Notes under the pieces: model-generated
The model's input: only the letters and a program-made list of their open reading frames with translations
The model's database searches: none
What the model was told of the DNA's origin: nothing
In this document: piece by piece, positions 1,179 through 32,010 of the stretch
Layout: each line of letters starts with the position of its first letter
Position numbering within the stretch: the stretch's first letter is position 1
DNA from: a virus
Taxonomy: Duplodnaviria; Caudoviricetes
DNA: 59,244 bases
IMG/VR virus record: IMGVR_UViG_3300033067_002000
Span: 1-59,244 of that record
Reading direction: 5' to 3' (one strand)
Made by a program: the position numbers and the translations under genes

Positions 1179-1196
1179 GTTGAATCTCTCCAGATG

Positions 1197-3412: not shown

Positions 3413-5498
3413 GATTTTCTTCTCCTTCAATCACTTCAACGGGCGCGGAGGGTTTGTCCACCGCTGCCGCGTACAAACACGTCGCTTGAAACGGCAACGT
3501 ACCGTTCTGCGCACAGAGCGCCTGTTGATCACACTGCGCGCAGACCACCCTTTCGGCAATGGTCAGAGAAATGCGCTTTTTGTCCTCAAGCACCGTTGCG
3601 ACGAATCGATCCATCGCGTACGTCGCGTTGGACGTGAGGAGGCGGAGCACCGTCATAGGCCTTTTCTGCCCGATGCGGTACGCGCGGTCCATGGACTGCC
3701 GGTACTGAAGAGGGTCCCACGGCACGGAGTAGTAGATCGTGTAGTTGGCTGCCGTGAGCGTAATGCCGATACCTGTCGAGACCTGGCTGAAGTACACGCG
3801 GCAGTTTGGGTCTGTCTGAAACTTGTCTTCGCACGCACTCTTGTTGGAGGTCTTCCCATCAACACGAACGAAGGCGATTTTCTGAGTCACAGGAACGCCG
3901 TCTACGACGACTGAAAGTCGTATAGCTTTAAGCGCCTCTTGGATGTCTTCGAGCTCAGCGGTGCGGTTCGACCAAACGATGACCTTGTTCGTGGGATCGG
4001 CTTCGAGGATGTCGACCAGCGTTGACTTGAACAAGTCGAGCTTCGGGTTCTCCATGTCGCGCAGAATCGTCTTCGGCACGGTCTCCGGATACACCTTGCA
4101 CTTCTTTGTGTAAGGCCTGATCTTCGACTCGACACACGGAAGCATGTACGGGCACTCGTCACACACGGAGGTGTCTGCGCCGAGCGTCACAAAGCCAGAC
4201 ACGACCTGAAGCAGCTTGTTGGAGCGATCCGCGCCGTTGGCCAGGTTGCGACCTTCAGAAACGGGAAGCTCCTGATCCTCCAAAGCTGCCGGGTTCATGT
4301 ACGCCAGCATGGGTGCCACGGACGTTCGAAGCTTGAGCACCAGCTCGTTGTACCGGGCACGCTGTGTTGGGCCCATGTCGAAGTAACGATCCTCGATCAC
4401 CAGCGGCGGTAGATCGATGCACTCGGACTTCTTCATCCGGATCGCGATCTGATTCACACGATCGTTGAGCTCATTCAGGAGACGAAATCCCCGCACAATG
4501 TGCTTGTTGAACTTTGAGAACACCACATGGTGGTCGACGAACTTCCGGTACGGCATCGGCACGAGCGCAGGGGACAAAAAGTACAGTTGCGCGTACGCTT
4601 TGCGCGGATCGTCTCCAAACGTACCTGTGAGGCACAGCCGCCGGGACGCTTTGGCTGAAAGTTCAATCGCGGCCTGCGTGCGGCCGGATTCCCAATTACC
4701 CATGTAGTGGCTTTCATCCGCGATGATCATGTCGTAGTCGAGCTGATAGAGGTGGTGTTGAACATCCCAGCGGTACTGCTCAACTTGCTCCGCCGTAAGT
4801 AGGGGCAAGTTGTACTGAAGGCGCTTGGCGTCAGGGATTCGAAGCTCCTTAGCCGCATGATCGGCCTTGTCCTTTTCGATTCGTACGCGATCGTAAGACG
4901 CAAGGACCATGTCGGCGTCTTGGGCTGCTGCTACGGCTTTACGCGATCCGTCCCACTCCACCACCTTCCAGGTCTTTGAAGTACAGCGAAGGGCGTCACG
5001 TTTCCAGCTGTCGAGCACGACCGGCGGCGCAATCACGAGAGCCTTGTTGAACTCCCCGCGCTTGCGTAAAAGGCGCAGGCCGTCGCTTACGGTCCGTGTC
5101 TTCCCGGTACCCATGTCCCACAAGATCAAGGATCGCCTGTACGACACGATCCGCTGCATCCCGAGGGGTTGATGCCTGTACGGCGTAAAATCGTCAGGGA
5201 AGTCGAGGTCGATCTCGACGTGGTTTCCCGCGTAGTAGGCAATCTCCGCCGCCGTCCAAGTCGCGAGGTCGTCGCGCGCGGCCTTGAGGTGATCAAGAGC
5301 GCGGTCGTCCCAGTGCGCCGTTGGGTACATCTTCCGGATGTCCGAAAATACCCACTGCGCGAACGGGGCGTACGCAGGAAATAGCCACGTCCCGTCGAGA
5401 TAGGACGCGCCCCACGCGCGGCGAAGCACGCTGTGCTCCCCCTCAGAGATCGAGAACGCGGGAGTAGACTTACCTAAGAGTATGCCGTTGATCTGCAT
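3396..5498 (-). CDS. SNF2/Swi2-family helicase
   Basis: DMGTGKT (motif I), DESH (II), LTGT (III), GIGITLTAA, QSMDRAYRIGQ (VI). Start reassigned to MQING after GAGGGAG. Confidence 0.93.
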   Translation of the reverse strand: MQINGILLGKSTPAFSISEGEHSVLRRAWGASYLDGTWLFPAYAPFAQWVFSDIRKMYPTAHWDDRALDHLKAARDDLATWTAAEIAYYAGNHVEIDLDFPDDFTPYRHQPLGMQRIVSYRRSLILWDMGTGKTRTVSDGLRLLRKRGEFNKALVIAPPVVLDSWKRDALRCTSKTWKVVEWDGSRKAVAAAQDADMVLASYDRVRIEKDKADHAAKELRIPDAKRLQYNLPLLTAEQVEQYRWDVQHHLYQLDYDMIIADESHYMGNWESGRTQAAIELSAKASRRLCLTGTFGDDPRKAYAQLYFLSPALVPMPYRKFVDHHVVFSKFNKHIVRGFRLLNELNDRVNQIAIRMKKSECIDLPPLVIEDRYFDMGPTQRARYNELVLKLRTSVAPMLAYMNPAALEDQELPVSEGRNLANGADRSNKLLQVVSGFVTLGADTSVCDECPYMLPCVESKIRPYTKKCKVYPETVPKTILRDMENPKLDLFKSTLVDILEADPTNKVIVWSNRTAELEDIQEALKAIRLSVVVDGVPVTQKIAFVRVDGKTSNKSACEDKFQTDPNCRVYFSQVSTGIGITLTAANYTIYYSVPWDPLQYRQSMDRAYRIGQKRPMTVLRLLTSNATYAMDRFVATVLEDKKRISLTIAERVVCAQCDQQALCAQNGTLPFQATCLYAAAVDKPSAPVEVIEGEENHEDAV

Positions 5499-5533
5499 GC
5501 TGTGCTCCCTCGTTTTAGAGCAAGAGGCCGTTG

Positions 5534-7291
5534 ATGAGTATGGACGTGGCTGGGTTTGACACTGGAGGCGGGTCACAGGAGGGTTGGGGCGCACGCGGCG
5601 CGGCTCATCCCAACCCGATGAACGACTACCTGACAGGCTTCTATCCCAGGAAGCTCAAGGACGTTTTCAAGTGGGCAGAGTTCCTTCGGACCCGTAGCGC
5701 ACACGTCTGCAACGTCGTGCGTTCGTTCGGTGAGTACCCCATCACCCGGTTCATCTACGAAGAGGCAGGTAACGACAACGAAAAGAAGCGACACAAGGAG
5801 GCCCTCGAAACGCACTTGCAGCTGAAGGGGTTTTTGACGCAGGTCTCGGGCGACTTGTGGACGTACGGCAACTGCTTCGTCTCCGTGTACGAGCCAATTC
5901 TTCGAGAGCTCAAGTGCACAAGTTGTGGTACGTGGGAGAACATTACAGCGGCCGACTACACCTTCAACTTGGACAAGTTGCAGTTCAAAATGAATTGCCG
6001 TGCATGCAAGTTGAAGAACTCGGTCGCCGAAGTGAAGGACTTGCCGCTTCGTAAGCCCGAGCGTCTCAAGCTTCTTCTCTGGGATCCGAAGGCGATCGAC
6101 ATCGAGCACAACCCGGTCACCGGCGAGGCGGTTTACTACTACCAGATTCCGCGCGACACGATCGCGAAGGTTCGTGCCGGCGAGAAGGTTCAGATCAACC
6201 ACACGCCGATGGGGATGTTGCGGGCCATGCAGGACCGCAAGACCTTCAAGTTCGAAGACGACAAGATCTTCCACTTGAAGATGAAGGGGCCTTCAGGGCT
6301 CCAAGCGCAGTGGGGTCACTCACCGATGACGGCGGCCATCGGGCCGTTCATGTTCGCGGCAACACTCCGCAAGGCCAACGAAGCCATCGCGCTCGACCAC
6401 CTCACGCCGATGCGGATCATTCACCCGCTGGCGGGTAGCGCGCAGGGAGATCCGCTCACGACGATCCCTCTCGACGAGTGGCGCACGCAGATGGAGCGCA
6501 ACCTGCGTCTGTTCCGTCGCGACCCCCTTCGCATCCAGTTCTCTCCCATCCCCGTCGGCGTACAAAACGTCGGCGGTGAAGGCCGTGCGATGCTCACCCT
6601 CGGTGAGCTGCAAGAAGCGGAGAAGGCCATCATCATGGCCTTCGGCGTCCCCATGGAGTTTGTCACCGGCGGTCTCGGCCAGACGCGTGGCGAAATTACG
6701 TTGCGGATGATCGAGAACAAGCTCCAGACACACATTGAAAACTTGAACTCACTGATCCAATGGGTGGAGAAGAAGGTCGCCATCTTCATGGGCTGGGGTT
6801 TCGTCAAGGTCCGCCTCGCCGACTTCAAGATGATCGACGACATGGACAACAAGCAGTTGAAGATGTCCCTCTTCGACCGTCAGATCGTGTCCGAAATGAC
6901 CGTGGCCGAGATGCTCAATATCGATCTCGCACACGAGCGCGATCAGCGCTACGAGGACACGATCGCCAACGAGAAGGTCAAGCAGAAGACCAGCATCGCC
7001 GTTCAAAAGCTCCAGATCGCTCTCTCGCAGCAGGCGCAGCAAGGGGCCTTGCAGGCGCAAGGTGGGATGGCGTACGACCAACAGCAGATCATTGCTCAGG
7101 CCGATCAACGTGTGCAAGAGTTGATCGGACTCGACGCGGGCTCGCGCAGGTCCGTGCTCGACAAGATGAAGGGCGAGGACTTCGTCATGTACTCAGTCAT
7201 TGTTCAACGGCTTGAGCAGACACAGCAGGATCAGATGGCGCAGATGAAAGCCCAGGGCGGCGGTGGTGAGACGCAAGGGGTAGCGGCATGA
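5534..7291 (+). CDS. Portal protein with Zn-ribbon insertion
   Basis: YGNCFV, IFHLK, WGHSP and AFGVP portal-like segments; CTSC...CRAC insertion; first gene of the structural region. Confidence 0.72.
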   Translation: MSMDVAGFDTGGGSQEGWGARGAAHPNPMNDYLTGFYPRKLKDVFKWAEFLRTRSAHVCNVVRSFGEYPITRFIYEEAGNDNEKKRHKEALETHLQLKGFLTQVSGDLWTYGNCFVSVYEPILRELKCTSCGTWENITAADYTFNLDKLQFKMNCRACKLKNSVAEVKDLPLRKPERLKLLLWDPKAIDIEHNPVTGEAVYYYQIPRDTIAKVRAGEKVQINHTPMGMLRAMQDRKTFKFEDDKIFHLKMKGPSGLQAQWGHSPMTAAIGPFMFAATLRKANEAIALDHLTPMRIIHPLAGSAQGDPLTTIPLDEWRTQMERNLRLFRRDPLRIQFSPIPVGVQNVGGEGRAMLTLGELQEAEKAIIMAFGVPMEFVTGGLGQTRGEITLRMIENKLQTHIENLNSLIQWVEKKVAIFMGWGFVKVRLADFKMIDDMDNKQLKMSLFDRQIVSEMTVAEMLNIDLAHERDQRYEDTIANEKVKQKTSIAVQKLQIALSQQAQQGALQAQGGMAYDQQQIIAQADQRVQELIGLDAGSRRSVLDKMKGEDFVMYSVIVQRLEQTQQDQMAQMKAQGGGGETQGVAA

Positions 7292-7698
7292 GCGGCGATT
7301 GGTACGATGAGCAGAAGCAGGAGCAACAGGACAAGCCGCGCGGCGTGCGTCCGTATGCGCGCAGCCTGGACGAAGACACGCCCACGCGGCGCAAAGAAAA
7401 GGTGCACCACGACACCTTCTCGCTCTTCCGTCCGTGGCGGGGCTGCTCTCGATGCAAAAAAGAGCTGGGGCCCGACCTGGTGGGTCTGCCAGAAAACTCC
7501 GACTACGTATGCCCGCACACCCGGAAAGCCGAGTACGTCGAGCTGATCGCAAGCATCCGCAACAACCCGAACATGATCCGGCTCTCGCATCGCGAGTTTT
7601 CGACCGATCGCGGCGAGACGTTCGCGCAAGTGACGTGGGCGACGCCGGAAGAACCCGTCGCAGTGGCGCCCCGGAAGGCGCCGCTGCGGGAGCTCTAG
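7288..7698 (+). CDS. Hypothetical protein (CxxC...CPH)
   Basis: ATGA overlap with the portal stop codon. Confidence 0.6.
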   Translation: MSGDWYDEQKQEQQDKPRGVRPYARSLDEDTPTRRKEKVHHDTFSLFRPWRGCSRCKKELGPDLVGLPENSDYVCPHTRKAEYVELIASIRNNPNMIRLSHREFSTDRGETFAQVTWATPEEPVAVAPRKAPLREL

Positions 7699-7702
7699 GT
7701 CG

Positions 7703-7753
7703 TTACTTCGACCACGCTCGGACGACCAACCTCAAGATGCTTACGATCACCAT
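7703..7753 (-). CDS. 16-aa hydrophobic/basic peptide MVIVSILRLVVRAWSK
   Basis: GGAGGT SD just upstream of the ATG; fits inside the intergenic gap; below the ORF-track size cutoff. Confidence 0.5.
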   Translation of the reverse strand: MVIVSILRLVVRAWSK

Positions 7754-7833
7754 GAGAAACCTCCAGTAGTTCTGAGGGCAACCTTTGCCCTACGTAGTCT
7801 TTTACCGCGTGAAGTAGCTATTCTTCGCACGCG

Positions 7834-10800
7834 ATGCCCAACCTCACTCCGATCCTGACCGACGCCGCAACCCTCCGCGCCAAGATCCACGCCAAGGCCG
7901 CCTCCGCACTGAAAAGCGCGTTTCCCATCGACTTGAAGGGTCGCACGCTGGAACTGGAGGACGTGAAGGTCCACGCGCAGGAGTACGGCCCCAACGACCA
8001 GAAGCAGAAGCTGCTGACCGAGGGCTCGCTCAACGAGGCCATCAAGGGCACGCTCGTCCTGAAGGACTCGCAAGGCCGCACGATCAACCGCGCCGAGAAC
8101 TTCCTGCTCGGGCACCTGCCGTACCTGACCGAGCGTCACACGCTCATCGCCAACGGCAACGAGTATCAGCTGGCGAACCAGCTTCGCCGCAAGCCTGGGG
8201 TCTATGCCCAAAGGGCCGAGAACGGGGAACTCAAGTCCACGTTCAATCTTGGGCGAGGAAAGAACTTCGACCTGACCTTCAACGAGGGCAAGGGTACCTT
8301 CCACCTCGCGTACGGCACGAGCAACATCCCTCTTTACGCCGTACTGAACGGCCTCGGAGCAAAGCACGAGGACGTCAGCAAGGCGTGGGGTGCCGGCGTC
8401 GCGGCGGCGAACCGTGACGAACACGGACACCAGGTCGATGCCTCGATTTCGAAGCTCTACGGGAAGCTGGCACACCCATCAACGCTGAACATGGCGCTCG
8501 ATCACGAGGCGAAGCGCGCGGAGATCGAGAAGAGTTGGGCTAAGACGCAGCTCGATCCGGAAGTGACGCACGCGACGCTCGGGCACGGACATGATCGTGT
8601 GACGATCCCTGCGCTGCTGGCGGCGTCAAAGAAGCTCCTTCAAATTCACAAGGGCGAGACTGAGGTCGACGACGTCGATGCGCTCACATACAAAACCTTC
8701 CACGCCATCGACGATGTTCTCGCCGAACGCCTGGGCCTCGCGGCGCGCGATTGGAAGATGAAGGCGCGCTTCGCACTCAACGGCAAGACGAACATCCGTG
8801 AGGCATTGAAGCCTGCGCCGTTCTCGAACTCGATCAGGAAGTTCGTGACTACGAGCTCATTGACGGCGGTTCCGACGGGCATCAACCCCATGGAGATCCT
8901 CGACCACGCGATGAAAGTGACGTCGCTCGGCGAGGGAGGCATCCCGAGCGATCGAGCAATTCCGTACGACGCGCGCATGATCCACGACACACACTTCGGG
9001 GCGCTGGACCCGATTCGTACGCCCGAGTCCGGACACTCCGGCGTCGACATCCGCGCCACCATCGCCGCGCATCGTGACGACGCCGGCAACCTCTACACCG
9101 TCGTGCGAGACGTGAAGACCAACAAGGAGGTGTACCTCCGGGCGGGTGATCTCGCGAAGTACGTAGTGGCGTTTCCTCATCAGCCGCTCAGCGGGTTGGT
9201 GGATGCCTTTGAGCATGGGAAGCAAACTCGTGTACCCGCGAGCCGTGTGACCCACCAGGTCATCCACCTGAAGCACCTCTACTCGCCCGTAACGACGCTC
9301 ATCCCTGGCATCCACTCGATTCAGGGCAACCGCGCGATCATGGGTTCGAAGATGGGCACGCAAGCACTGCCTCTCGTCGAGCGCGAGGCTCCGCACGTGC
9401 AAGTCATGTCGCACCTGGCTGACGACGTGTCGTTCGAGCGTATCTACGGCTCGATGATCACACCGCGCGCGCCCGTCGCCGGCACGATCAAGAAGATCGA
9501 CGAGAACTGGATCTACATCCAGCCGCACACCAAGAAGATGGGCGAGAAGACGGCGGCCGAAGCCCTCGTGAAGGTGCCGTACCAGAATCACTTCCCGTTC
9601 CCTTCGAAGACCTACTTGCACCACGCCCTTCACGTGAAGGCCGGCGACAAGGTCGAAGAGGGCGAGAACATGGGTGAGTCCAACTTCACACGCAAGGGTA
9701 CCCTCGCGCTCGGAAAGAACCTGCTCGTCGGGTACCTGCCGTACTACGGCTTCAACTCCAACGATGCCGTAGTCATTTCCGACGCTGCTTCGAAGAAGCT
9801 CACTAGCGAGCACATGTACCGGGAGGTCTATCCGCTTTCGACCGGCTTGGAGATCAACAAGGCCAAGCACCGGATGTACGTCGGCGCGAAGTACACCGTG
9901 TCGCAGTACGCACAGCTCGGCGAAGATGGCGTCGTGAAGAAGGGGGCGAAGGTGCACCCGAAGGACATTCTCGTCGCTGGCATGATGAAGCAGCAGATCA
10001 CAGGCACCGATGCGATGCTGGGTAGGATTTCCAAGGCGTTGTCGAGTCCGTACAAGGATGTGGCGTTGACGTGGGAGCACGGGACTCAGGGCGAAGTTAT
10101 TGACGTCGTAAAGTCTGGAGGGCAGATCGCGATCCTGGTGAAAACGCTTGAGCGTATGCAGATCGGCGACAAGCTCTGCTACGCCGAGGGTACCGACGTG
10201 CTCACCGAGACGGGCTGGAAGCCGATCCAGGACGTGTTATTGACCGAACGTGTGGCCATTCTCGACGGGGACGAGCTCAAGTACGACTACCCATCCGCGA
10301 CACACAAGTACGCAACGGGCGGGCGCATGTACTCGCTGGAGACGCAGCAGGTTGATCTGCTGGTGTCCGAGACGCACAACATGTACGTCAAGCGCCGCTC
10401 CGGCAAAGCCTTCGAGCTCATCCCGGCCAAGAGCGTTTGGAAGGAGCGCGTGCGCTACCGCAAGGACGCCAACTGGACAGGGGTGCCCGCACAGCCTGTG
10501 ATCTTCCCTGCAATGCAAGTCGTGGCGGGCCGGCACGGGCACGGGACGCGTGAGATGCCCGCGTTCTCTATGGCGGCGGCGACGTACGCCATGTTGCTTG
10601 GGATGTTCTTGTCGGAAGGGAATTGTGTCGATCAAATCGACAGCGGTTCGTATGGGATCGACATCACACAGATCAAGGAACCGAATCGGGCAATGCTTCT
10701 GGACGCTCTAACGGCGGCGGGGCTCAAGTTTTGTGAGGCGAGTCACCACACAAAGGTTCGGATCTACTCCAAGCAGCTCTTGGAACACTTCAAGCAGTTT

Positions 10801-13800
10801 GGATTGTCCGAAGACAAGTACATCCCGAACTTCGTGTTCACATGGGATCGCGAGACACTCAAGATCCTGTTCAAGTGGCTGATGTGGGGCGACGGCAACG
10901 CGTTGGACGGGCGGTCCGTGGCGTACACCACGACGTCCCTACGTTTGGCTGACGACGTTCAACGGCTTCTGCTGCACATCGGCTACGCCGGCAACATCAA
11001 GTCGAGCCACAAGCCTGTGCAGACCATCAAGGGTCGTACGTCGCACAACTGCCTGCGCCGTTACGACGTTCGCACCATCACGACGAAGCTCCAGCCCGAG
11101 GTCAATCACGGGCACACCAAGACGCAATCGGGTCAGACGGAATCGTGGATCCCGGACTACCAGGCGCCCATCTACGGCCTGACGGTTCCTGGCGGCGTCA
11201 TCTACGTACGGCGCAACGGCAAGTCCGTGTGGTCCGGCAACAGTGGGCGCTACGGCAACAAGGGCGTCGTCGCCAAGATCGTCCCCGACCACGAGATGAT
11301 CCGTGACGCCGAGGGTCGTCCTATCGACTTGCTCCTCACGTCGGCGGGCGTTGTCTCACGCATCAACCCCATGCAGGTGATCGAGACCGCCCTCGGCAAG
11401 GTCGCCGAGAAGACCGGCAAGCCGATCCTCTTCGACAATGCGGCCGGGCACAACGCCGAGGCGTGGGCGCAGAAGCTGCTCAACGAGCACAACATCAAGG
11501 ACAAGGAGCACCTCTACGACCCCGTCTTGAAGCGGCACATCAAGGGCTCCGACGGCAACGGCGTCCTTGTCGGCCGTCAGTACATCTACAAGCTCTTCAA
11601 GTCGACCGACACCAACTTCGCTGGGCACGGCGTGGGCCCGTACGACTTGAACGAGCAACCGCTCAAGACCGGGGGCGACGACTCCGCCAAGGGCCTCGGC
11701 AAGATGGAGTTCGACGCGCTCCTCGCACATAACGCCCGCAACTTCCTCCGCGACGCGGCCACAGTGCGCGGGCAGAAGTCCGAGGAGTTCTGGAAGGCTG
11801 TGCAGACCGGGATGCCGCTCCCGGCCGGCAAACCGTCGTTCGCGTACAACAAGTTCCTGGGCATGCTCGAAGGCGCCGGCATCCGCGTCGACAAGCGCGG
11901 ATCGAAGATCACGCTCATGCCGCTTACGGACAAGGACGTGCTCGCGCGCAGCACCGGCGCCATCGAGAACAACAAGACGTTGGCGGCGAAGAACCTCAAG
12001 CCGGAAGCTGGCGGCCTCTTCGATTTACGCCGTACTGGCGGCGCCAACGGCACTCTCTACTCGCACATCGACTTGCACGAGAAGATGCCGAGCCCTGTGT
12101 TCCAGGAGCCTGTTCGCCGCTTGCTTGGGCTCACGCAGGCGGAGTTCGACAAGCACCTCGGCGACAAGGGCGGCTCGTGGTTCCACTCCGAGCTCTCGAA
12201 GATCGACGTGACGAAAAAGATCGCCGAGCTGCGCGAGAAGATGAAGAAGGCTGGCGGCCCGGTGCTCAACGACTTGATCAAGCAGATCAAGTACCTGGAG
12301 ACGTTGAAGGCCCACAACCTCACGCCGCAGGACGCGTACATGGTGTCGAAGGTGCCGGTGGTGCCTCCGATCCTGCGCCCGATTCTGCCGATGCCCAACG
12401 ACCCGACGCAGATCATGGTGAGCGATCCGAACAAGCTCTATGCGCACTTGATGGACGCGAACCACACGCTCAAGAACACCGCGATCGAGAGTGACACGGC
12501 GAAGCACCGGCGCGAGCTGTTCGGCTCGATGGAGGCCTTGTACGGGACTGCGCTGCCTCTCGACCCGAAGCTGTCGCAACAGAAGACGAAGGGGTTCTTG
12601 GCGAACATCGCGGGTGTGGGGACGCCGAAGGGTGGGTTCTTCCAACGCAAGCTCATGCGCCGTAACCAAGACGTGTCAGGACGCGGTACGGCGGTACCAG
12701 ACGTGAACCTCGGCATGGACGAGATCGGCGTTCCCGAGGCCATGCTGTGGGGCATGCTCGACAAGTTCCTCGTCGCCCGGTTGGTGCGCAAGGGCTACAG
12801 CGGCCTGGACGCGCGCGAGCTCGTCAACAAGAAGACCCCTGCGGCGAAGCAGGCGATGATGGAGGAAGTGAAGGAGCGCCCCTTCATCTTCAACCGCGCC
12901 CCGACGCTGCACCGGTTCAGCGTGCTCGCTGCGTACGCGAAGCCGGTGCAGGGCAAGACCCTGCGCGTGAATCCGTTCGGGGAAAAGGGGCTAAATCTTG
13001 ATTATGACGGCGATTTCTCGATTAGTGCATTAACAGTATTGATCGACAGCGCTACCTCTGACGACGTGACCCGCAAGTGGGCGGCGTCGCAAACGGAGGT
13101 GCCTATGTCCGCGCGTTTCAAAGAGGTTGTCGGCGTCAAAAACGGAACGAGTGTCTACTTCTGTCACTTGGCTGATTTTCCTCGACACGAAGAAATCAGC
13201 AGCGTCAGCAACCACATCACATTCCACAAGGTTCCTGACGGCGTTGAGGTGCTCTCGTACGATGCCGCCACGGGGCGTATCATCGCCACGAAGCCCTCGT
13301 ACTGGTCGTTCCACAAACAGCGTGAAGTCGAAATCGCGACACTCATGTCCAAGCGCCAGATCATCAGCGACGACGACGAGCGCGCCGTTTATGGCTTGAA
13401 CGCCAATTTGGAAGAAGTGCGCGCTCGGCCATCAGAAGCGGTCGGCATTCATGTGCCGGTCGGTTTCGGATTCGAGGACCTCGGCGAAACGCTCACGCGT
13501 ATCGCGACGCCGCCCATCAACCGTAACAACGCATACGCGCTCAAGGAGTTCATCGAGCTCAACGAACGCACGGGGCGCGTGATCGGCACTTACGTGGGCG
13601 ATGGGTGGGTCTCGTACTTGCACGACAAGATCGTTGGTACGTGCCTCGCCAACGTAGCCCCTGAAGTCACCAAGCACTTCTATGCTGACCTTGAAGCCGA
13701 GTTCTTCGCTGAAATGCCTGGAACGTACCACCGCACCACCGAAGCCCTGACGCAGGGAAACTACGGCGAGAGTCAAAAGCACACGGTCAATTCGACAGAA

Positions 13801-14973
13801 CTCGGGCGCTGGTTAGCACCACTGATCGGGCGCGGGGCCGAGAACAAGCACCTGCCGCCTTGGTACTTGTTCACACCTCAAGCCTTCAGGGAAGGGCTGC
13901 TGGCCGGCTTGTTGGACACGGACGGGACAGTATCTTGCTCCAAGCCCACGACCAAAAAGTTGAACGGGCAATGGATGGTGAACTACAGCAGTACCAGTCT
14001 GCGTCTGTCGCAAGAATTGGTATGGTTGTGTCGCTCGTTGGGGATCCATGCGCACGTAGGTCCCACCAAGACCAAGGCAGGGGGGCCGGCTTGGCAAACC
14101 AACATCTCTACCGTGGATCTCACACGTGCAAACGTGCCGTGTGTCCACGCTGAGAAACGTGACGGGCTGTCGCGAATCAAGACCGAGGTCGCACAGGTGA
14201 GTGCCGCCAGTTCCGCTCTCGACATGATTCCTATCCCGGAGTTCATCGCAGCCAAGCTCAGCCGGTGCTGTCCGACAAGTTCTACGCCGTATGTCCTTTT
14301 GCGGAAGGCGACGCGGACAAACGTCGTCAATCGCGCGCTGGCCGAACGGGTCTTGGCCAGCAACCCTACGCTGCGTGAAGATGTCAGCCCTCTCATGCAA
14401 CGCTGGTTGCAGATCGTCGACAATCACGCAGTTCGCTGGGACCGCGTCGTCTCCTACGAGAAAACCGGCATCGTCGAGGACGGCTACGACCTCACCGTCC
14501 CCGGCTACGAAACGTTCATGAACGTCGAAGGCGTGATCCTGTCCAACACGTTGCAGATCCACGCGCCCATCACCGCCGGCGGCATCGAGGACACCAAGAA
14601 GATGCTGCTCTCCAACCTCCTCTTGGCTGATCAGAGGAAGAACACGTTGATGGCGTTCCCTCAGCACGAAGCCATCATCGGGTTTACCCTTGCGGCGAAA
14701 GCTCAGGGTAAGGGTCCTGTGAAGCACTTCGCTACTGAGGAAGACGTGATCGCAGCCTACCGGCGCGGCGAGATTCCGATGGACGCCCTGGTGGAAATCG
14801 ACAACAAGAAGCACGCCGCCGACCCCGTCGACAACACCGACAACGACGAGTCCGACCCTGCCGAAGGCGATTTCGTCCCGGGGCACGCGAGCGTCTTAGC
14901 CTTGTATCCGCCCGGGAGTGTCACCGGCGAAGCGGATGAAGACGATGACGACGATGTTCCCGTTTCTGGCTGA
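7834..14973 (+). CDS. rpoBC: RNA polymerase beta fused to N-terminal half of beta', containing two inteins (about 1513 aa after splicing)
   Basis: Beta motifs HFGALDPIRTPE, GNRAIMGSKMGTQA, GDKL|SGRYGNKG and GLGKMEFDAL; beta' motifs VPVVPPILRP, FNRAPTLHR and NLDYDGD|TLQIHAP. Confidence 0.96.
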   Translation: MPNLTPILTDAATLRAKIHAKAASALKSAFPIDLKGRTLELEDVKVHAQEYGPNDQKQKLLTEGSLNEAIKGTLVLKDSQGRTINRAENFLLGHLPYLTERHTLIANGNEYQLANQLRRKPGVYAQRAENGELKSTFNLGRGKNFDLTFNEGKGTFHLAYGTSNIPLYAVLNGLGAKHEDVSKAWGAGVAAANRDEHGHQVDASISKLYGKLAHPSTLNMALDHEAKRAEIEKSWAKTQLDPEVTHATLGHGHDRVTIPALLAASKKLLQIHKGETEVDDVDALTYKTFHAIDDVLAERLGLAARDWKMKARFALNGKTNIREALKPAPFSNSIRKFVTTSSLTAVPTGINPMEILDHAMKVTSLGEGGIPSDRAIPYDARMIHDTHFGALDPIRTPESGHSGVDIRATIAAHRDDAGNLYTVVRDVKTNKEVYLRAGDLAKYVVAFPHQPLSGLVDAFEHGKQTRVPASRVTHQVIHLKHLYSPVTTLIPGIHSIQGNRAIMGSKMGTQALPLVEREAPHVQVMSHLADDVSFERIYGSMITPRAPVAGTIKKIDENWIYIQPHTKKMGEKTAAEALVKVPYQNHFPFPSKTYLHHALHVKAGDKVEEGENMGESNFTRKGTLALGKNLLVGYLPYYGFNSNDAVVISDAASKKLTSEHMYREVYPLSTGLEINKAKHRMYVGAKYTVSQYAQLGEDGVVKKGAKVHPKDILVAGMMKQQITGTDAMLGRISKALSSPYKDVALTWEHGTQGEVIDVVKSGGQIAILVKTLERMQIGDKLCYAEGTDVLTETGWKPIQDVLLTERVAILDGDELKYDYPSATHKYATGGRMYSLETQQVDLLVSETHNMYVKRRSGKAFELIPAKSVWKERVRYRKDANWTGVPAQPVIFPAMQVVAGRHGHGTREMPAFSMAAATYAMLLGMFLSEGNCVDQIDSGSYGIDITQIKEPNRAMLLDALTAAGLKFCEASHHTKVRIYSKQLLEHFKQFGLSEDKYIPNFVFTWDRETLKILFKWLMWGDGNALDGRSVAYTTTSLRLADDVQRLLLHIGYAGNIKSSHKPVQTIKGRTSHNCLRRYDVRTITTKLQPEVNHGHTKTQSGQTESWIPDYQAPIYGLTVPGGVIYVRRNGKSVWSGNSGRYGNKGVVAKIVPDHEMIRDAEGRPIDLLLTSAGVVSRINPMQVIETALGKVAEKTGKPILFDNAAGHNAEAWAQKLLNEHNIKDKEHLYDPVLKRHIKGSDGNGVLVGRQYIYKLFKSTDTNFAGHGVGPYDLNEQPLKTGGDDSAKGLGKMEFDALLAHNARNFLRDAATVRGQKSEEFWKAVQTGMPLPAGKPSFAYNKFLGMLEGAGIRVDKRGSKITLMPLTDKDVLARSTGAIENNKTLAAKNLKPEAGGLFDLRRTGGANGTLYSHIDLHEKMPSPVFQEPVRRLLGLTQAEFDKHLGDKGGSWFHSELSKIDVTKKIAELREKMKKAGGPVLNDLIKQIKYLETLKAHNLTPQDAYMVSKVPVVPPILRPILPMPNDPTQIMVSDPNKLYAHLMDANHTLKNTAIESDTAKHRRELFGSMEALYGTALPLDPKLSQQKTKGFLANIAGVGTPKGGFFQRKLMRRNQDVSGRGTAVPDVNLGMDEIGVPEAMLWGMLDKFLVARLVRKGYSGLDARELVNKKTPAAKQAMMEEVKERPFIFNRAPTLHRFSVLAAYAKPVQGKTLRVNPFGEKGLNLDYDGDFSISALTVLIDSATSDDVTRKWAASQTEVPMSARFKEVVGVKNGTSVYFCHLADFPRHEEISSVSNHITFHKVPDGVEVLSYDAATGRIIATKPSYWSFHKQREVEIATLMSKRQIISDDDERAVYGLNANLEEVRARPSEAVGIHVPVGFGFEDLGETLTRIATPPINRNNAYALKEFIELNERTGRVIGTYVGDGWVSYLHDKIVGTCLANVAPEVTKHFYADLEAEFFAEMPGTYHRTTEALTQGNYGESQKHTVNSTELGRWLAPLIGRGAENKHLPPWYLFTPQAFREGLLAGLLDTDGTVSCSKPTTKKLNGQWMVNYSSTSLRLSQELVWLCRSLGIHAHVGPTKTKAGGPAWQTNISTVDLTRANVPCVHAEKRDGLSRIKTEVAQVSAASSALDMIPIPEFIAAKLSRCCPTSSTPYVLLRKATRTNVVNRALAERVLASNPTLREDVSPLMQRWLQIVDNHAVRWDRVVSYEKTGIVEDGYDLTVPGYETFMNVEGVILSNTLQIHAPITAGGIEDTKKMLLSNLLLADQRKNTLMAFPQHEAIIGFTLAAKAQGKGPVKHFATEEDVIAAYRRGEIPMDALVEIDNKKHAADPVDNTDNDESDPAEGDFVPGHASVLALYPPGSVTGEADEDDDDDVPVSG
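10177..11241 (+). mobile_element. Intein 1 (355 aa) with LAGLIDADG homing endonuclease, in the beta GDKL/SGRYGNKG motif
   Basis: Starts CYAEGTDVLT and ends WSGN before Ser; LLGMFLSEG and WLMWGDG motifs; removal restores the conserved beta motif. Confidence 0.92.
13015..14547 (+). mobile_element. Intein 2 (511 aa), atypical N-terminus, LAGLIDADG endonuclease, directly after catalytic DYDGD
   Basis: Ends GYDLTVPGYETF...ILSN before Thr; IGTYVGDG and LAGLLDTDG motifs; removal gives NLDYDGDTLQIHAP, matching NADFDGDQMAVHVP. Confidence 0.88.
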
Positions 14974-15496
14974 GCTGATTGAGAAGACGGGGTCGGACTA
15001 CGACCAACCCGCCCCGCCCGAGCAACCGGCACCCCCGGAGCAGCCGGCGCCGCCCGAACAAGCCCCGGAACCCGAGCAACCCTCTCCCTATCTGGAAATC
15101 CTTCGACGGCTTCTGACCAAGAAGACGACGTTGATGCTCGCGTACATTTCCTACGGCGACCAGCTCCAAGCGTTCTTCCGCGACGGGATCTACGAGCACT
15201 TCCAAGAGCACCTCAAAGAAGAGCGGGCTGCCGTCTACGAAATCCACAAGAAGATCGTGGCGCTCGGCGGCGGTGCTGGCGTGCAGATCGAGCCCGTGCC
15301 CCCAGTGCCGCTCGACAACCCGCGCTTCATCTTCGGCATCATCCAGTCTTTGGAGATGCAGGCTGTCGAGCTCTGGACCGAGCTCTTCAACGCTACCAAG
15401 AAGGACGTGCCTCTGAACGGCCTCGCGCAAGACAACGCACGCATCGATCAAGCACACGCGGACGACATGGCGCGCTACCTTCGGGCGGTACCATGA
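14954..15496 (+). CDS. Ferritin-like (Dps/bacterioferritin fold) protein with N-terminal leader and QPAPPE repeats
   Basis: YEHFQEHLKEE...KIVALGG, LEMQAVELW and DQAHADDM helical-bundle pattern; start uncertain (14936/14945/14954). Confidence 0.65.
   Translation: MFPFLAELIEKTGSDYDQPAPPEQPAPPEQPAPPEQAPEPEQPSPYLEILRRLLTKKTTLMLAYISYGDQLQAFFRDGIYEHFQEHLKEERAAVYEIHKKIVALGGGAGVQIEPVPPVPLDNPRFIFGIIQSLEMQAVELWTELFNATKKDVPLNGLAQDNARIDQAHADDMARYLRAVP
15005..15082 (+). repeat. In-frame 18-bp repeat (QPAPPE x3 plus variant)
   Basis: Translation QPAPPEQPAPPEQPAPPEQAPEPEQP. Confidence 0.8.
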
Positions 15497-15852
15497 GCGA
15501 GCTCGACCCCTTGATCCACGGCATCGCCACGCGCCTGAAGAAGAAGCAGCGCGGCTTTCACTTCGATCCCCCGCCGGGTTTTTACGGAGTCAAGAAGCTC
15601 TTCGGCAAGACGGCCGAGGCGTGCGCGCGTGGTGTGGCTTCGGTGCTCGCGAAGTACGCCCTGCTCGACAACCAGAAGACGCCGATCGAGGACCTCGCGA
15701 AGCTCTTCAGCACGTCGAACTTTGGGTACGGCGACAACCCTGGCAAGCGGCCGGGCAAAGAGCCTGTGAACTGGGGCGCTGCGGGCGCGGCGCCTGACGG
15801 TCAAGGTGATCGCGCGGGGGCTTCGAGGTTCTTGCGTTCAACCAGCGTTTGA
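15493..15852 (+). CDS. Hypothetical protein with KTA motif
   Basis: ATGA-coupled to the upstream gene; coding-like codon usage. Confidence 0.65.
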   Translation: MSELDPLIHGIATRLKKKQRGFHFDPPPGFYGVKKLFGKTAEACARGVASVLAKYALLDNQKTPIEDLAKLFSTSNFGYGDNPGKRPGKEPVNWGAAGAAPDGQGDRAGASRFLRSTSV

Positions 15853-15863
15853 TAGGAGTTGAA

Positions 15864-16523
15864 ATGAGTACGCCCGAACAGATCAAAGAAGCCCAATGGC
15901 GCGGCGTCGACCGCGCCCTCACCCTCTACGGCCTCGACAAGACCGCCGGTGTTCTTGGCACGCTCGGCAGCGCGCTCGGTCGAGCGGGCACCGGCGCAGC
16001 CAAGGCGTACCAGCATGGCGGCGGCACCATGATGCAGAACGCTGCGAAGGGTGCCAAGGCCGGTTGGTCGGGCTTCCAGCGCGCAGGTGGCATGCAGGCT
16101 GCTGGCAAGGCCCTCGGCGGCGCGGCGCTCGCGGGTGGCGCGGCGTACGGAGCAGGCAAGGCGTTCGGGGCGGGACAGCAGTCGAACCAGCCGCCGAAGA
16201 TGGCGGGGATCAGCGACTTCGCGGCCATCGCGGCCCTCCCTGCTCTCGGCGGCGCGTTCAAGGGCGTTTCGCACAACCACGCAGAGCCTGTTCAAGGTGC
16301 CGCACGAGGTGTCGCAGGCGCGACGGGCGGGGCGCTGGCCGGCGGCGTGGCGGGCCTCGGCGGCAGCCTCGCGCTCTCGCACCTTTTGAAGCCGCAAGTG
16401 GGTGACAAGAGCCCCATCAAGGCATTGGCCGCGCTCGCGCCCCTCCTGCTCGGTACGGTCGGCGGCGGCGTCGGCGGCTACAACCTCGCGACCAAGAAGT
16501 ACGATCAGCCCCGTCAGGACTAA
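15864..16523 (+). CDS. Gly-zipper membrane-type protein with LYGLDKTA leader (putative virion cargo)
   Basis: AGGAG SD; GxxxG-rich hydrophobic helices; N-terminal module shared with 18570..19394. Confidence 0.75.
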
Positions 16524-16540
16524 ACAGAAGGACAACGATC

Positions 16541-16768
16541 ATGGATTTCGGACAGGCACTTCTCCTGCTCAAGCAGGGACATCGCGTGGCTCGGGATGGC
16601 TGGAACGGCAAGGGCATGTCCCTTGAACTGCAACGCCCGGACATGAACTCAAAGATGACGCTCCCGTACATCTTCATGACCACGGTGCAAGGTCAGCGTG
16701 TCCCGTGGCTTGCGTCGCAAACCGACATGCTCGCCGAAGACTGGGCCGTATTGCCCGCCATCGCGTAG
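16541..16768 (+). CDS. DUF2829 / Tad2-like anti-defence protein
   Basis: [21 protein letters not shown]...PYI...[15 protein letters not shown] signature. Confidence 0.88.
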
Positions 16769-16780
16769 TAAGGGGGTCTC

Positions 16781-18583
16781 GTGCCCGTCACCGTCGGATC
16801 CATCCTCATCAACTCCGTGATGCCGAAGGGCTACAAGCTCAACGGCCCCATCACCAATCGTGATCTTCATGACCATGTCGTCGGCTTGGCGAAGTCCGAC
16901 CCTGCACAGTATGTGCAGACGATCATGGCGTTGAAGCGGCGCGGCGACGAGATCGCGACGCTCGAAGGTGTGTCCGTCGGCCTTGAGGACATCCGGCCGG
17001 ATTACGCGGCGCGAGACAAGATCATGGTGCCTGCCATCAAGGCGCTCGCGGAAGCCAAGACTGAGAAGGCCCGCGAGAAAGTCATCATGGACACGCAGGC
17101 TGCGATCACCGCGCACACCAAGCAGCACCCAGGGTCCATGACCCACATGGCGCTGTCGGGCGCGCGCGGCAACATCGGGCAACTCATGAAGATCGTGGCT
17201 ACGCCGTTGGCGTCGGTGCACCCAAGGAAGGGCGTCAGCCCCGAGTTCATTGACCGCTCGTACTCCGAGGGCCTTACCCCGGCGCAGTACTGGCGCGCGG
17301 GACCCGAAGTGCGAGCCAACGAAGTGAAGGCCCGTATCTCGGTTTCTGAGCCTGGCGAGATGGCCAAGGTCCTCGTCAACAACATGATCGGCCAGGTCAT
17401 TACGTCGTCCGACTGCGGAACTTTCAACGGCGTAAAGACCAGCCTCGATGACGGCCACATCCTCGACCGGTACACCCAGGCGGATCACGGGCTGCCAAGG
17501 AATACCCTCGTCACTCCTCAACTGATTCAACAACTCAAGCACAAGGGCAACATCGCAACGTTGTTGGTGCGCTCTCCCATGACGTGCGCCGCGACGCAAG
17601 GCGTCTGCCAGCACTGCCAAGGGCTCAACGAGAAGGGGCACATGCACGCCGTCGGCATCACCGTCGGCGTTCGCGCGGCCCAAGCCATGGCAGAGCCGCT
17701 CACGCAGATGGCGCTCTCGTCGCGTCACGGCACGTTGATGGTCAAGGAGAAGGCGGAAGCCCCTTCAGGCTTGAAGGGTGTGCGGCAGCTCTTGGAGATC
17801 CCGAAGGCATTCAAGCACGAAGCCGTACTCGCACCGCATGCCGGTCAGGTCGGTCAGATCGAAAAGGCACCTCAAGGCGGCCACTACATCCACGTCGGTG
17901 CAAAGAAGCTGTACGCGGGCCCGAATCTCACGGTCACGGCGCACGAAGGGCAGACGGTCGAGCACGGCGACACGCTCACCGATGGTGTTCCGCACCCGGC
18001 CAAGATCGTGGCGGCCAAAGGCATCGGCAAGGGCCGCGCGCACTTCGTCGATGCGATGTACGCGCTGTACAAGGGCGAGGGTGTCGACCTCGACAAGCGG
18101 CACTTGGAGCTGCTCGCCAAGAGCGAGATCAATCACGTGCGGCTGCTTGAAAGTGACCCGGATCACCCCGAGCTTTTGAAGGGTGACACGATCAACTACA
18201 ACCAGTTTCGCGATGCGTACGTACATGACGTCGCACGTTTGCCCGTGGCAGATGCCATCGGCAAACGCCTGGGGGCCGAGGTTCTCCATCACACCGTCGG
18301 GACGTTGATCACACCGAACGTCGCGAAGGAGCTTCAGGGCCACGGCGTGCACGAAGTGAGCACGGCGCGACGCATGCCCCAGGTCGAGTTCGTCATGAAG
18401 CCCTTCGCGATGAACCCGCTTTTGGAGCGCGACTGGATGGCGCGTTTGTCGCACCGCTACCTGAAGAACACCTTGCAGGAGGCCGCGCAGTTCGGCGAGA
18501 CCTCTGACATCCATGGCACGCACGCAGTGCCAGCGTATGCTTTCGGAGCGGAATTGCGACACGGACCCAATGGAACCTTCTAG
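16781..18583 (+). CDS. rpoC: RNA polymerase beta' C-terminal half
   Basis: SGARGN, SYSEGL, DCGT, RSPMTC...GVCQHC Zn site, AAQAMAEPLTQMALSSRHG trigger loop, DKRHLE. Confidence 0.95.
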   Translation: MPVTVGSILINSVMPKGYKLNGPITNRDLHDHVVGLAKSDPAQYVQTIMALKRRGDEIATLEGVSVGLEDIRPDYAARDKIMVPAIKALAEAKTEKAREKVIMDTQAAITAHTKQHPGSMTHMALSGARGNIGQLMKIVATPLASVHPRKGVSPEFIDRSYSEGLTPAQYWRAGPEVRANEVKARISVSEPGEMAKVLVNNMIGQVITSSDCGTFNGVKTSLDDGHILDRYTQADHGLPRNTLVTPQLIQQLKHKGNIATLLVRSPMTCAATQGVCQHCQGLNEKGHMHAVGITVGVRAAQAMAEPLTQMALSSRHGTLMVKEKAEAPSGLKGVRQLLEIPKAFKHEAVLAPHAGQVGQIEKAPQGGHYIHVGAKKLYAGPNLTVTAHEGQTVEHGDTLTDGVPHPAKIVAAKGIGKGRAHFVDAMYALYKGEGVDLDKRHLELLAKSEINHVRLLESDPDHPELLKGDTINYNQFRDAYVHDVARLPVADAIGKRLGAEVLHHTVGTLITPNVAKELQGHGVHEVSTARRMPQVEFVMKPFAMNPLLERDWMARLSHRYLKNTLQEAAQFGETSDIHGTHAVPAYAFGAELRHGPNGTF

Positions 18584-19394
18584 CTTCGACATTGACGCGG
18601 TAAAGGCTCAGACCCGTGTGAAGGTCGCGACCCTCTATGGCCTCGACAAAAGCGCGTATGAAGCAGTCGGCCCTCTTGAAAGCGCCCTCGGTCGCGCGGG
18701 TCGCGCCGCATCCAAGGCGTATCAGAACGACAGTGGCCACATCCTTCAAAAGCTCCTGGCTGGGACGGGCGCAGGTTGGAAGGGCTTTCGCCGAGGTAAG
18801 GGCTTCAGCGCAGCGGGCAACGCGTTGTTCAGTGAACACGTCATTCACCCTTCGCAGCCGGGCGTCCTCAACAAGCTCAAGGCTTTCGGCAAGCACGTCG
18901 GGGAGTTCGGCCGCGAGATGGTGGCAGGCTCGCCGATCACCTTGGCGAAGCAATTGAAAGACCACCACATCGAAGCCGGGGGCGGCGTCGGCGGCGCTGT
19001 GCGCGCTGGCGGCAAATACGTCAAGGACTTCTACATGTCGCCGAAGTCGCCGATGTGGATGAAAGCCCTTTCGCTCGGAGTGCCAGCGATGGAACTTGGC
19101 GGCATCGCGCTCAAGGGTGATCCTGCGACACGCAAGGGCGATCTGGCGCACGCGATCTCCGGCCTCGTCGCCTCGCCCTTTACCGCGCGCTTGGGCTTGC
19201 CCGGTATGGCCCTGCAAGGCGCGGTTCAGTCAGGTGCGCGCGCTCTGGCGTCCAAGTTCGACCACAAGAAGCAACCGTACGATCCGAACTACGCACAGCT
19301 CGGACCACACGCTCGCAACGTCGTTCGCGCCACCGGCGGCCCTTTGAACGCCCTCAACGACATCGTGCCGCCTGATATAGACGCGGCCACCTAA
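18570..19394 (+). CDS. Gly-rich protein with LYGLDKSA leader (N-terminus paralogous to 15864)
   Basis: About 65-aa module shared at protein and DNA level; hydrophobic C-terminal helices. Confidence 0.7.
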   Translation: MEPSSFDIDAVKAQTRVKVATLYGLDKSAYEAVGPLESALGRAGRAASKAYQNDSGHILQKLLAGTGAGWKGFRRGKGFSAAGNALFSEHVIHPSQPGVLNKLKAFGKHVGEFGREMVAGSPITLAKQLKDHHIEAGGGVGGAVRAGGKYVKDFYMSPKSPMWMKALSLGVPAMELGGIALKGDPATRKGDLAHAISGLVASPFTARLGLPGMALQGAVQSGARALASKFDHKKQPYDPNYAQLGPHARNVVRATGGPLNALNDIVPPDIDAAT

Positions 19395-31086: not shown

Positions 31087-32010
31087 ATGTACCAGACCGA
31101 AACGACCACAGCGAGCTCGACCGAGCTGAACCAAAGGTTCGGCGCGATGCTCAAGGCCGGACAGACCAAGCAGGCCGAAGAGATCGGCAATGCCTTCATC
31201 CGCACTCGCGTCCGCCAGGAAGCTGCGGTCCGGATGATCATCATTCCGCAGAAGCTCAACGAGGACGAGCTGAGCGAGGACCTCGAATCGGACGAGCCGC
31301 GCAAGATCGTCGACAAGGAGCCGAACTCCAAGGCGACGTACGTGCCCTTCGACGGCACGCCGGCCGCGACTTGGTACCGTGGTCGCAAGTACGCGGTGTA
31401 CTTCGGCAAGACGCAGAGTGACATCTTCGTCAAGTCGAAGTACAAGCTCCTCACGTACAACTACGACATCCGCAAGGTGCTCGCGGACAACTCGGTCAAG
31501 GACATGGCCGACCAGGAAGACATCTTCTTCCGCCGCACCGCGCTCGGCTGCGTGAACGCCAACGCGGGCGTCCAGCGCACCCCGGCCGGCGCGTTCACTC
31601 CCTCGGCGTTCGTGCGCGGCAGCCAGGCGATCATCAATCGCCGCTTGCCCATGGGCAAGATGCTCATGACGCAGTCGCTCTTCCAGGAGGCGATGAACCT
31701 CCCGGCGACCCTCATCGGCGACAGCATCGCGCGCAAGCACTACGAGCAGGGCGTCGAGAAGGAAGACAGCCTCTGGGGCATGCCGGTCATCACGACGGCC
31801 AAGACGGACGTGTACAACACCCAGGAGTGCTGGATGTTCGCGCCGCAGAACTACCTCGGCAACTTCTTCCTGCTCCAGGACGCGACGCTCTTTATCGAGC
31901 AGCGCGCGGATATGATCACCTTCTGGACCTACGCAGTACCCGGCATCGGCATCGGCAACGCGGAAGCGATCCAGCAGATCGTCTTCGGCCAGCAGGCGCA
32001 GCTGACCTAA
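31087..32010 (+). CDS. Major capsid protein (HK97-like fold)
   Basis: Position, size, very strong codon bias and downstream hairpin; FIRTRVRQEAAVRMII, DMADQED, LWGMPVI, GIGIGN. Confidence 0.75.
   Translation: MYQTETTTASSTELNQRFGAMLKAGQTKQAEEIGNAFIRTRVRQEAAVRMIIIPQKLNEDELSEDLESDEPRKIVDKEPNSKATYVPFDGTPAATWYRGRKYAVYFGKTQSDIFVKSKYKLLTYNYDIRKVLADNSVKDMADQEDIFFRRTALGCVNANAGVQRTPAGAFTPSAFVRGSQAIINRRLPMGKMLMTQSLFQEAMNLPATLIGDSIARKHYEQGVEKEDSLWGMPVITTAKTDVYNTQECWMFAPQNYLGNFFLLQDATLFIEQRADMITFWTYAVPGIGIGNAEAIQQIVFGQQAQLT

Follow-up and report, generated by a model that had tools for sequence, protein, structure and literature searches.

The RNA polymerases (RNAPs) of phages phiKZ and AR9 are encoded by the phage itself, include a form packaged in the virion, and have no alpha or omega; as the accessible parts of the reports describe them, they come in two sets, with an unfused beta in two to three pieces, a beta-prime cut past the catalytic barrel and no sigma homologue (PMC7598289, PMC7824862). 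In phiKZ-type RNAPs the beta-prime break falls at the site used in cyanobacteria, according to the available text of PMC7598289. These enzymes posed the question of how beta and beta-prime hold together without alpha and omega. Cells have rearranged the same subunits in other ways. Helicobacter-type RNAPs join the C-terminus of beta directly to the N-terminus of a whole beta-prime; in cyanobacteria and plastids, beta-prime is divided into rpoC1 and rpoC2, beta is separate, the zinc domain is present, and alpha, omega and sigma are used. Closer to our subject, Salmonella phage Arash has two RNAP proteins that its authors name beta and beta-prime, with no fusion described in the accessible text (PMC10585845). 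Here we describe a phage RNAP that combines a beta/beta-prime fusion with a beta-prime split, encoded in IMG/VR record IMGVR_UViG_3300033067_002000 (Caudoviricetes). The window that we analysed is this entire record, 59,244 bp with linear ends.

A beta/beta-prime fusion with a separate beta-prime C-terminus

The preliminary description of this locus, made from the sequence, had beta running straight into beta-prime. This holds, because both Pfam sets and both E. coli alignments fall on a single open reading frame (ORF) of 2379 residues. Along this ORF (7834-14973) the beta domains Rpb2_3 and Rpb2_6 are followed by the beta-prime domains Rpb1_1 and Rpb1_2, with E-values of 1e-35 for Rpb2_6 and 1e-13 for Rpb1_2. 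BLASTP against E. coli K-12 matches residues 24-213, 261-758 and 1137-1353 to beta residues 51-251, 425-931 and 1067-1338 (of 1342), and residues 1437-1727 to beta-prime residues 175-464. The junction lies at about residues 1353-1360 (nucleotides ~11890-11913), where, in pairwise alignment, the end of beta abuts a segment matching E. coli beta-prime from residue 14 onward, with essentially zero linker. Some 32 residues of E. coli beta-prime, the zinc-binding stretch that contains four Cys, are unmatched in the large ORF. Thus the N-terminal zinc ribbon of beta-prime is missing, as had been noticed, and Rpb1_1 and Rpb1_2 are present with the zinc domain gone.

The same description missed that 866 of the ORF's 2379 codons belong to two LAGLIDADG inteins, which we found by alignment with Arash, Vibrio phage D69 and 16 IMG/VR relatives (Table 1). 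The chain predicted after splicing has 1513 residues, against 1503-1518 for the ORFs of intein-free relatives. The lysines of the beta barrel (GDK...GNKG) and the beta-prime DxDGD triad are both present and become contiguous once the inteins are removed; the sequence thereby supports an arrangement in which both catalytic double-psi barrels lie on one chain and the C-terminal part of beta-prime (beta-prime-C) is separate. To call this RNAP minimal overlooks that the ORF encodes a precursor that would need two protein-splicing events; the predicted enzyme itself is compact (1513 + 600 residues, against 1342 + 1407 for E. coli beta and beta-prime), with its zinc domain deleted. The reported motif changes (NFED to NSND, GRYG, DYDGD) are all real, although GRYG is actually separated from GDKL by an intein. 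Each of the 17 window-clade sequences covering the site has NSND where E. coli has NFED, whereas Arash and D69 retain N[HN]ED; the window's GRYG is GRHG or GRFG, and its DYDGD is DFDGD, in some relatives.

Beta-prime is split shortly after the catalytic barrel, ~100 residues past DYDGD, and its C-terminal half is a separate ORF (16781-18583), again as first described. The last extein of the large ORF reaches about residue 560 of E. coli beta-prime and beta-prime-C starts at about 570. A strongly acidic tail (14830-14970) closes the fused chain where beta-prime is split, and the C-termini listed for relatives are acidic too. The second zinc site of beta-prime-C retains its four Cys, all of them invariant when E. 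coli is added to the alignment. The subunit also has a clade-specific C-terminal motif, DWMA.L.H..L ... SDIHGTH.VP..AFGAE (18400-18583), which it shares with a fully fused 2157-residue protein, L110, to which we return below. Residue 51 of beta-prime-C aligns with residue 36 of a cyanobacterial rpoC2 chain; therefore, the break lies no more than ~15 residues from the rpoC1/rpoC2 break.

The other RNAP subunits were sought with Pfam hidden Markov models (HMMs) in five records: the window, two IMG/VR relatives rated as 100% complete (one of 172.9 kb, the other of 186.8 kb and with terminal repeats), Arash and D69. Neither alpha (PF01000) nor omega (PF01192) was found in any of the five, while the controls gave matches in 14 of 14 genomes. 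All matches to the beta-prime barrel family PF00623 fall in one ORF per record (5/5), which makes one RNAP set per genome. The four complete genomes all encode a Sigma70_r2 protein, at a distance of 7-10 kb from the RNAP gene; in the window, which CheckV estimates to hold ~34% of its genome, no sigma was detected by PF04542, by tblastn with five sigma-like ORFs from four related records, or by an HMM made from these ORFs. The first reading, that alpha, omega and sigma are all lacking, is therefore correct for what can be detected in the window and, for alpha and omega, in complete relatives; a sigma-less RNAP is the part that fails, since all the complete relatives encode sigma70-like proteins and the lack of sigma thus reflects the partial window.

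Distribution and phylogenetic position

Fusion and split together had been called unusual. They are not unique to this phage. We found 16 IMG/VR loci with a beta-prime-C protein 58-73% identical to that of the window, all with an RNAP ORF upstream, and in 15 of them this is a single ORF of 1503-2431 residues. The lengths differ because of inteins at the RTPE, GDKL and DYDGD sites and of non-intein inserts past residue 570. At the sixteenth locus, L011 (3489-9363), the large ORF appears as two overlapping ORFs of 1032 and 1023 residues, which could reflect a frameshift, a misassembly or a true break. The segment spanning the junction (residues 1137-1727), searched against 5.8 billion protein clusters, gave 1289 proteins at E ≤ 0.001 in a length band of 1308-4164 residues. 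The best 120 of these, the window's own included, cover 94-100% of the segment, the others among them at 53-76% identity; they are 1452-2682 residues long and lie on contigs of up to 191 kb. Thus the architecture is found in 15 of 16 IMG/VR relatives, at least 120 clusters, Arash and three Vibrio phages.

Among 50,697 phage records, the junction is in one piece only in Arash and in Vibrio phages D69, D181 and D148. Arash gp206 and gp216 are a 1525-residue beta/beta-prime-N chain and a 606-residue beta-prime-C, in the same place after the portal, and we group the Vibrio phages with Arash as systems of the same architecture. They differ from the window in that they are only 29-35% identical, have no inteins, keep N[HN]ED rather than NSND, and hold other genes in the gap. 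The remaining records with high coverage are joined from two to three pieces and have separate rpoB and rpoC genes or are unannotated. Other phages with bacterial-type RNAPs have a separate beta; their beta-prime is split in YerA41, RP13 and IME392 and whole in RHph_TM30. Compared with phiKZ and AR9, the window family has one RNAP set, a beta that is intact and fused, and sigma70-like genes in its relatives; the beta-prime-C of phiKZ and of AR9 went undetected by tblastn at E 1e-5. The mReC phages have a T4-type capsid with PF07068 as best match (Weinheimer and Aylward 2020, in its available text), and the window's major capsid homologue gave zero Pfam hits at E 0.001. In the mReC paper (PMC7481178, 97 contigs) the words intein, split, virion and sigma are absent, and "fused" is used for crAssphage only. 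We found no account of a phage beta/beta-prime-N fusion in the literature, supplements not covered. Since Arash has already brought this family into GenBank, the window belongs to a variant that has been sequenced and is undescribed among phage multisubunit RNAPs. The finding first reported is real and partly confirmed, having been misread in part.

Phylogeny against cellular RNAPs had been proposed as a check, and the window clade does not nest among them. We built a beta-prime-C tree (IQ-TREE, LG+C20+F+G4, 37 rows, 615 columns, without archaeal outgroup) from 25 bacteria, hand-picked from scan loci plus E. coli and with some metagenome-assembled genome labels that look unreliable, together with four other phage RNAPs, the window clade, Arash and D69. 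The 25 bacteria lie on one side of a branch supported at 100/99. They include Helicobacter pylori, whose own fusion occupies an open frame of at least 1945 residues, has a whole beta-prime, and groups with Campylobacterales inside Bacteria, far from the window. Six window-clade rows join Arash and D69 on a long branch, with support of 100/100. Among chains of solved structure, beta-prime-C matches those of bacterial beta-prime best (E 2e-27 and weaker), with no phage RNAP chain among the 60 solved matches listed. A scan for integrated or host-linked relatives in 185,579 prokaryotes, one genome per species, gave cellular rpoC at all of the best 80 loci, at 21-31% identity, and thus no hint of a host.

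A further group of proteins holds the complete fusion. P0123, P0127 and P0143, which surfaced through the intein search, contain all beta and beta-prime Pfam domains on a single chain, and L110 is an intein-free full fusion on a 150-kb IMG/VR contig, 26% identical to the window's beta-prime-C (E 3e-45). All four share with the window the beta/beta-prime fusion and the C-terminal motif, and the first three also the atypical intein after DFDGD that we describe in the next section; they differ in their unsplit beta-prime and at ~26% identity. In a quick tree of 39 rows, with YerA41 left out and P0143 not used, three full fusions fall on the window's side (Shimodaira-Hasegawa-like approximate likelihood ratio test, SH-aLRT, 99), below the node of Arash/D69 and the window clade (99). 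This position suggests, on an unrooted tree, that the fusion is older and the break in beta-prime secondary. No paper on fully fused beta-beta-prime phage proteins was found.

The RNAP genes were also said to sit inside the virion gene cluster, and portal and major capsid homologues do lie on either side of them. In fact, the region is colinear with Arash and D69: in all three, a minus-strand helicase, the portal, a small conserved ORF and the large RNAP ORF are followed by a variable gap, the second RNAP ORF, structural genes, the major capsid and a tail protein. GC content is ~0.60-0.65 all along the window. The portal, orf136, three gap genes and three ORFs further downstream match no PHROGs family, and megablast of the RNAP locus against the 50,697 phage records gave zero matches.

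The gap between the two RNAP ORFs holds four genes, which had been described as unrelated. The gap is there, but unrelatedness goes further than the gene content allows, since the ferritin-like gene (also matched as ferritin-like by an atlas structure, template modelling score 0.67) and the 119-residue gene keep this position in 13 and 15 of 16 relatives. Their products could be RNAP-associated or virion proteins; for the 119-residue protein the protein atlas gave nothing usable. The third gene has partial matches in 5 of 16 relatives. The fourth, a Tad2-like gene just upstream of beta-prime-C, is absent from all 18 related loci examined and thus looks like a recent accessory gene.

Inteins in the catalytic motifs

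Intein 1 separates GDKL from SGRYGNKG. It has Cys at position 1, a terminal Gly-Asn and Ser as the first extein residue; the Pfam Rpb2_6 profile is continuous over it, halting at position 227 and picking up at 228. Alleles without it read GDKL-AGRYGNKG, with Ala at +1, and the three carriers (the window, L010 and L012) all have Ser right after the insert. Across eight related inteins, Cys1, His67 (at the block B position), Asn355 and Ser at +1 recur, His67 being invariant. All the features of class 1, including exact presence or absence at the site among relatives, are found, and by its sequence intein 1 looks like a canonical class 1 intein. A sequence search of the PDB with it gave zero matches.

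Beta carries other inserts among the relatives. A third canonical intein follows RTPE (equivalent to window residue 398, where the window's site is empty); it is full-length in L009, L011 and L017 (350-353 residues) and a mini-intein in L010 and L013/L014 (145-170 residues). Canonical RTPE and GDKL inteins of relatives have a block F Cys (YC.TVPG) in addition to Cys1, and intein 1 of the window has Gly there. Several relatives among loci L013-L019 have non-intein domain inserts of 116-310 residues at the equivalent of window residue 570, with none in the window; one of them has a P-loop motif, and PF13238, PF18823 and PF00719 are among the precomputed Pfam labels of related proteins.

Intein 2 is of another kind. 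It splits the magnesium-binding loop, between DYDGD and TLQIH, and therefore presumably must leave. In the window it starts with Phe, contains the motif SDDDER, ends in Leu-Ser-Asn and is followed by Thr. Of the 16 related loci, 13 are insert-free and read DYDGD-TLQVH (DFDGD in two), L013 and L014 have a homologous insert, and L011 is the locus with the broken large ORF. A HMMER search of 1.84 billion representatives, clustered at 50% identity, gave 762 clusters at E ≤ 0.001 and 229 at ≤ 1e-30. Among 147 listed proteins, counted without the window's own and two obtained earlier in the junction-segment search, the insert stands directly after DxDGD in 100, mostly 1.9-3.7 thousand residues long; most of the remaining 47 are short fragments or carry another version of the motif. 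No cultured carrier was found, as tblastn against the 50,697 phage records gave zero matches at E 1e-5.

The family is well conserved at its ends, except for residue 1. In the 96 inserts with recognisable ends (16 further ones were unparsed), the first residue is Gln in 40, Ala in 13, Asp in 11, Glu in 9, Leu in 5, Asn in 4, Phe and Cys in 3 each, His, Ser and Gly in 2 each, and Tyr and Met in 1 each; LSN ends 92, and the next residue is Thr in all 96. DDDP, DDDE or DNDP precedes R-A-V-Y-G in 85. An alignment of 35 sequences has invariant polar N-lobe residues at S98, H100, D119, D121 and R123 and no Cys column at 85% conservation. The block F motif is GYDLTVPG, and its Asp, found in 100% of members, is presumably position F:4. 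The DDD motif may occupy the block B position, judging from a predicted strand-loop-strand pattern; with hhalign, canonical inteins aligned to the family over the endonuclease domain only and gave no block B residue map.

An AlphaFold model from 34 sequences (mean predicted local distance difference test score, pLDDT, 80.2) aligns to intein-endonucleases, with PI-PkoII at Z 23.8 and a root-mean-square deviation of 4.0 over 399 residues. Residues 31-541 of the model match residues 1-537 of the chain, and therefore Phe1728 is at intein position 1 and Asn2238 is last. Its spacing made the Cys at residue 49 of the insert a candidate for the intein start, which we rejected: homologues have Val, Ile, Leu, Thr or Cys there, and the structure alignment puts residue 1 first. 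A group I or II intron was rejected as well, Rfam having given one sub-threshold microRNA match only in 7500-18900.

In the definition given by the accessible text of PMC4031507, a class 2 intein starts with Ala1, has Ser next to its terminal Asn, is followed by Cys at +1 and depends on Thr and His of block B. Intein 2 resembles these KlbA-type inteins in having no N-terminal Ser or Cys, a Ser-Asn end and a block F Asp. It departs from them in that the family has mostly Gln1 (Phe in the window) with Ala1 in 13 of 96, always Thr and never Cys at +1 (0/96), an invariant DDD[P/E]R motif together with a WSxH motif in the N-lobe, no recognisable TxxH and no conserved Thr column in that lobe. From class 1 it has the HINT fold, the terminal Asn and a +1 nucleophile, but the N-terminal nucleophile is present in 5 of 96 only (Cys/Ser); the conserved block F Cys of class 3 is absent. 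By its sequence, then, the family fits none of the three described classes. We put forward, tentatively and at somewhat less than even chance, that it is an undescribed mechanistic class specialised on the DFDGD-T site of phage beta-prime. Two routes can be envisioned. Thr+1 could directly attack the Asp-X bond, in a class-2-like, oxygen-based reaction; or the flanking catalytic Asp triad might help, through a metal held between the extein DxDGD and the intein DDD or through an anhydride formed on the Asp at -1. No account of an intein at the DFDGD site was found in the literature, supplements not covered.

Table 1. Features of the RNAP locus and its surroundings in the window
Feature	Position	Strand	Remarks
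Precursor ORF	7834..14973	+	beta + N-terminal beta-prime with two inteins inside; 2379 aa; predicted spliced 1513 aa
Extein 1	7834..10176	+	aa 1-781; beta N-terminal + middle, to GDKL; Rpb2_3, Rpb2_6 profile 53-227
Intein 1	10177..11241	+	aa 782-1136, 355 aa; between GDKL and SGRYGNKG; LAGLIDADG_3 domain
Extein 2	11242..13014	+	aa 1137-1727; beta C-terminal (Rpb2_6 profile 228-369) + beta-prime N-part to DYDGD
Intein 2	13015..14547	+	aa 1728-2238, 511 aa; between DYDGD and TLQIH; HINT fold + LAGLIDADG endonuclease
Extein 3	14548..14973	+	aa 2239-2379; TLQIHAP... to ~E. coli beta-prime 560, ~45-aa acidic tail, stop
Gap gene 1	14918..15496	+	ferritin-like four-helix, Pro/Glu-rich N-terminal repeat; Pfam 29.8 bits; real start perhaps 14936
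Gap gene 2 (orf119)	15493..15852	+	119-aa protein
Gap gene 3	15849..16523	+	224 aa, no family
Gap gene 4	16541..16768	+	Tad2-like (anti-Thoeris sponge family), 75 aa; Pfam PF11195, 92 bits
Beta-prime C-terminal subunit	16781..18583	+	600 aa; Rpb1_4 + Rpb1_5; four Cys of second zinc site kept
Portal homologue	5531..7291	+	31% identity to Arash gp204; directly upstream of RNAP genes
Major capsid homologue	31087..32010	+	37% identity to Arash gp226
KorB/ParB-like domain protein	3-1274	-	weak, 23 bits; runs off window start
Large DNA helicase	3396-5594	-	phrog_62, E 2e-89; upstream of portal, opposite strand

Proposed assembly, packaging and use of the enzyme

Taken jointly, we think it probable that the window phage is Arash-like, with a genome of roughly 170-190 kb, and that these two genes of the virion module encode its single RNAP, which is spliced, packaged and used for early transcription. 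The first gene would be translated as the 2379-residue precursor, from which two homing inteins would excise, joining GDKL to SGRYGNKG and DYDGD to TLQIH. The spliced chain would comprise beta, the two double-psi barrels and the clamp portion of beta-prime minus the zinc ribbon; the second gene would supply the rest of beta-prime, with bridge helix, trigger loop and second zinc site. In assembly, the covalent link between beta and beta-prime would probably take the place of the alpha dimer and omega. By analogy with Arash, we envision that the enzyme is packed in the virion, is injected and transcribes early genes, probably together with sigma70-like factors that the phage encodes in another part of its genome.

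The analogy comes from mass spectrometry of Arash virions, in which Gp206, the fused chain, is the most-detected protein with 3516 spectra and Gp216 has 1210; sigma-like Gp10 and a helicase are in the virion proteome as well. In the accessible text, the authors suggest early transcription and allow for carry-over in purified particles (PMC10585845).

Several points weigh against this reading. The evidence for packaging is that of Arash, whose proteins are 29-35% identical. The window covers ~34% of its genome. Alpha and omega were sought with Pfam HMMs, which could miss divergent analogues; the two conserved gap genes could be extra RNAP subunits; and it may be the core enzyme of the host that the sigma70-like genes of the relatives serve. 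The trees have long branches and no root. Finally, intein 2 has no class 1 N-terminal nucleophile, and if it were unable to splice, the enzyme would be dead.

Could the phage replace only beta and beta-prime, its catalytic core still needing the alpha dimer, omega and sigma of the host? For such a core speak the closest solved relatives, which are bacterial beta-prime chains, the retention of the second zinc site and of a generally bacterial order of domains, and the fact that no assembly factor was identified. Against it stand the deleted zinc domain, the compact size (1513 + 600 versus 1342 + 1407 residues), the long separate branch, and the abundance of the homologues in Arash virions, for which the accessible text names no host alpha (PMC10585845). 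We regard such host dependence as unlikely. Slightly less likely again is that the RNAP is made late, lies in the structural block by gene order only, and works unpackaged as a middle or late polymerase. The Arash authors' remark, in the text available, that abundant enzymes may be carried along in purified particles speaks for it, but the place between portal and head/tail genes is kept in all relatives examined, each genome has just one RNAP set, and in Arash the RNAP spectrum counts are above that of the major capsid protein (PMC10585845, as accessible). That the window copy is non-functional, with intein 2 a decayed insert stuck in the catalytic loop, could be argued from its Phe at position 1 and the lack of a recognised TxxH motif, but is highly improbable, for the same traits run through the whole family (91 of 96 without Cys or Ser at position 1, LSN in 92, Thr in all 96, many invariant columns), and the window copy retains those family features together with both LAGLIDADG motifs and a frame open over 511 codons.

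A packaged two-chain RNAP assembled through its own fusion would be a different and simpler answer to the question raised by phiKZ and AR9: beta and beta-prime are held by a covalent link, and two chains, or one in the sister clades, make a bacterial-type active centre. Arash, one cultured member, appears to package the enzyme in its virion. With 1289 proteins in the length band searched, this large metagenomic family is a source of compact cell-type RNAPs for work on structure and evolution, including the order of fusion and fission events. In addition, inteins occupy both catalytic motifs, and the intein 2 family, with at least 762 clusters, poses a mechanistic question that is directly testable. 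This family may be more surprising than the RNAP architecture itself: if it is indeed a new intein class, then maturation of the virion RNAP would depend on its reaction.

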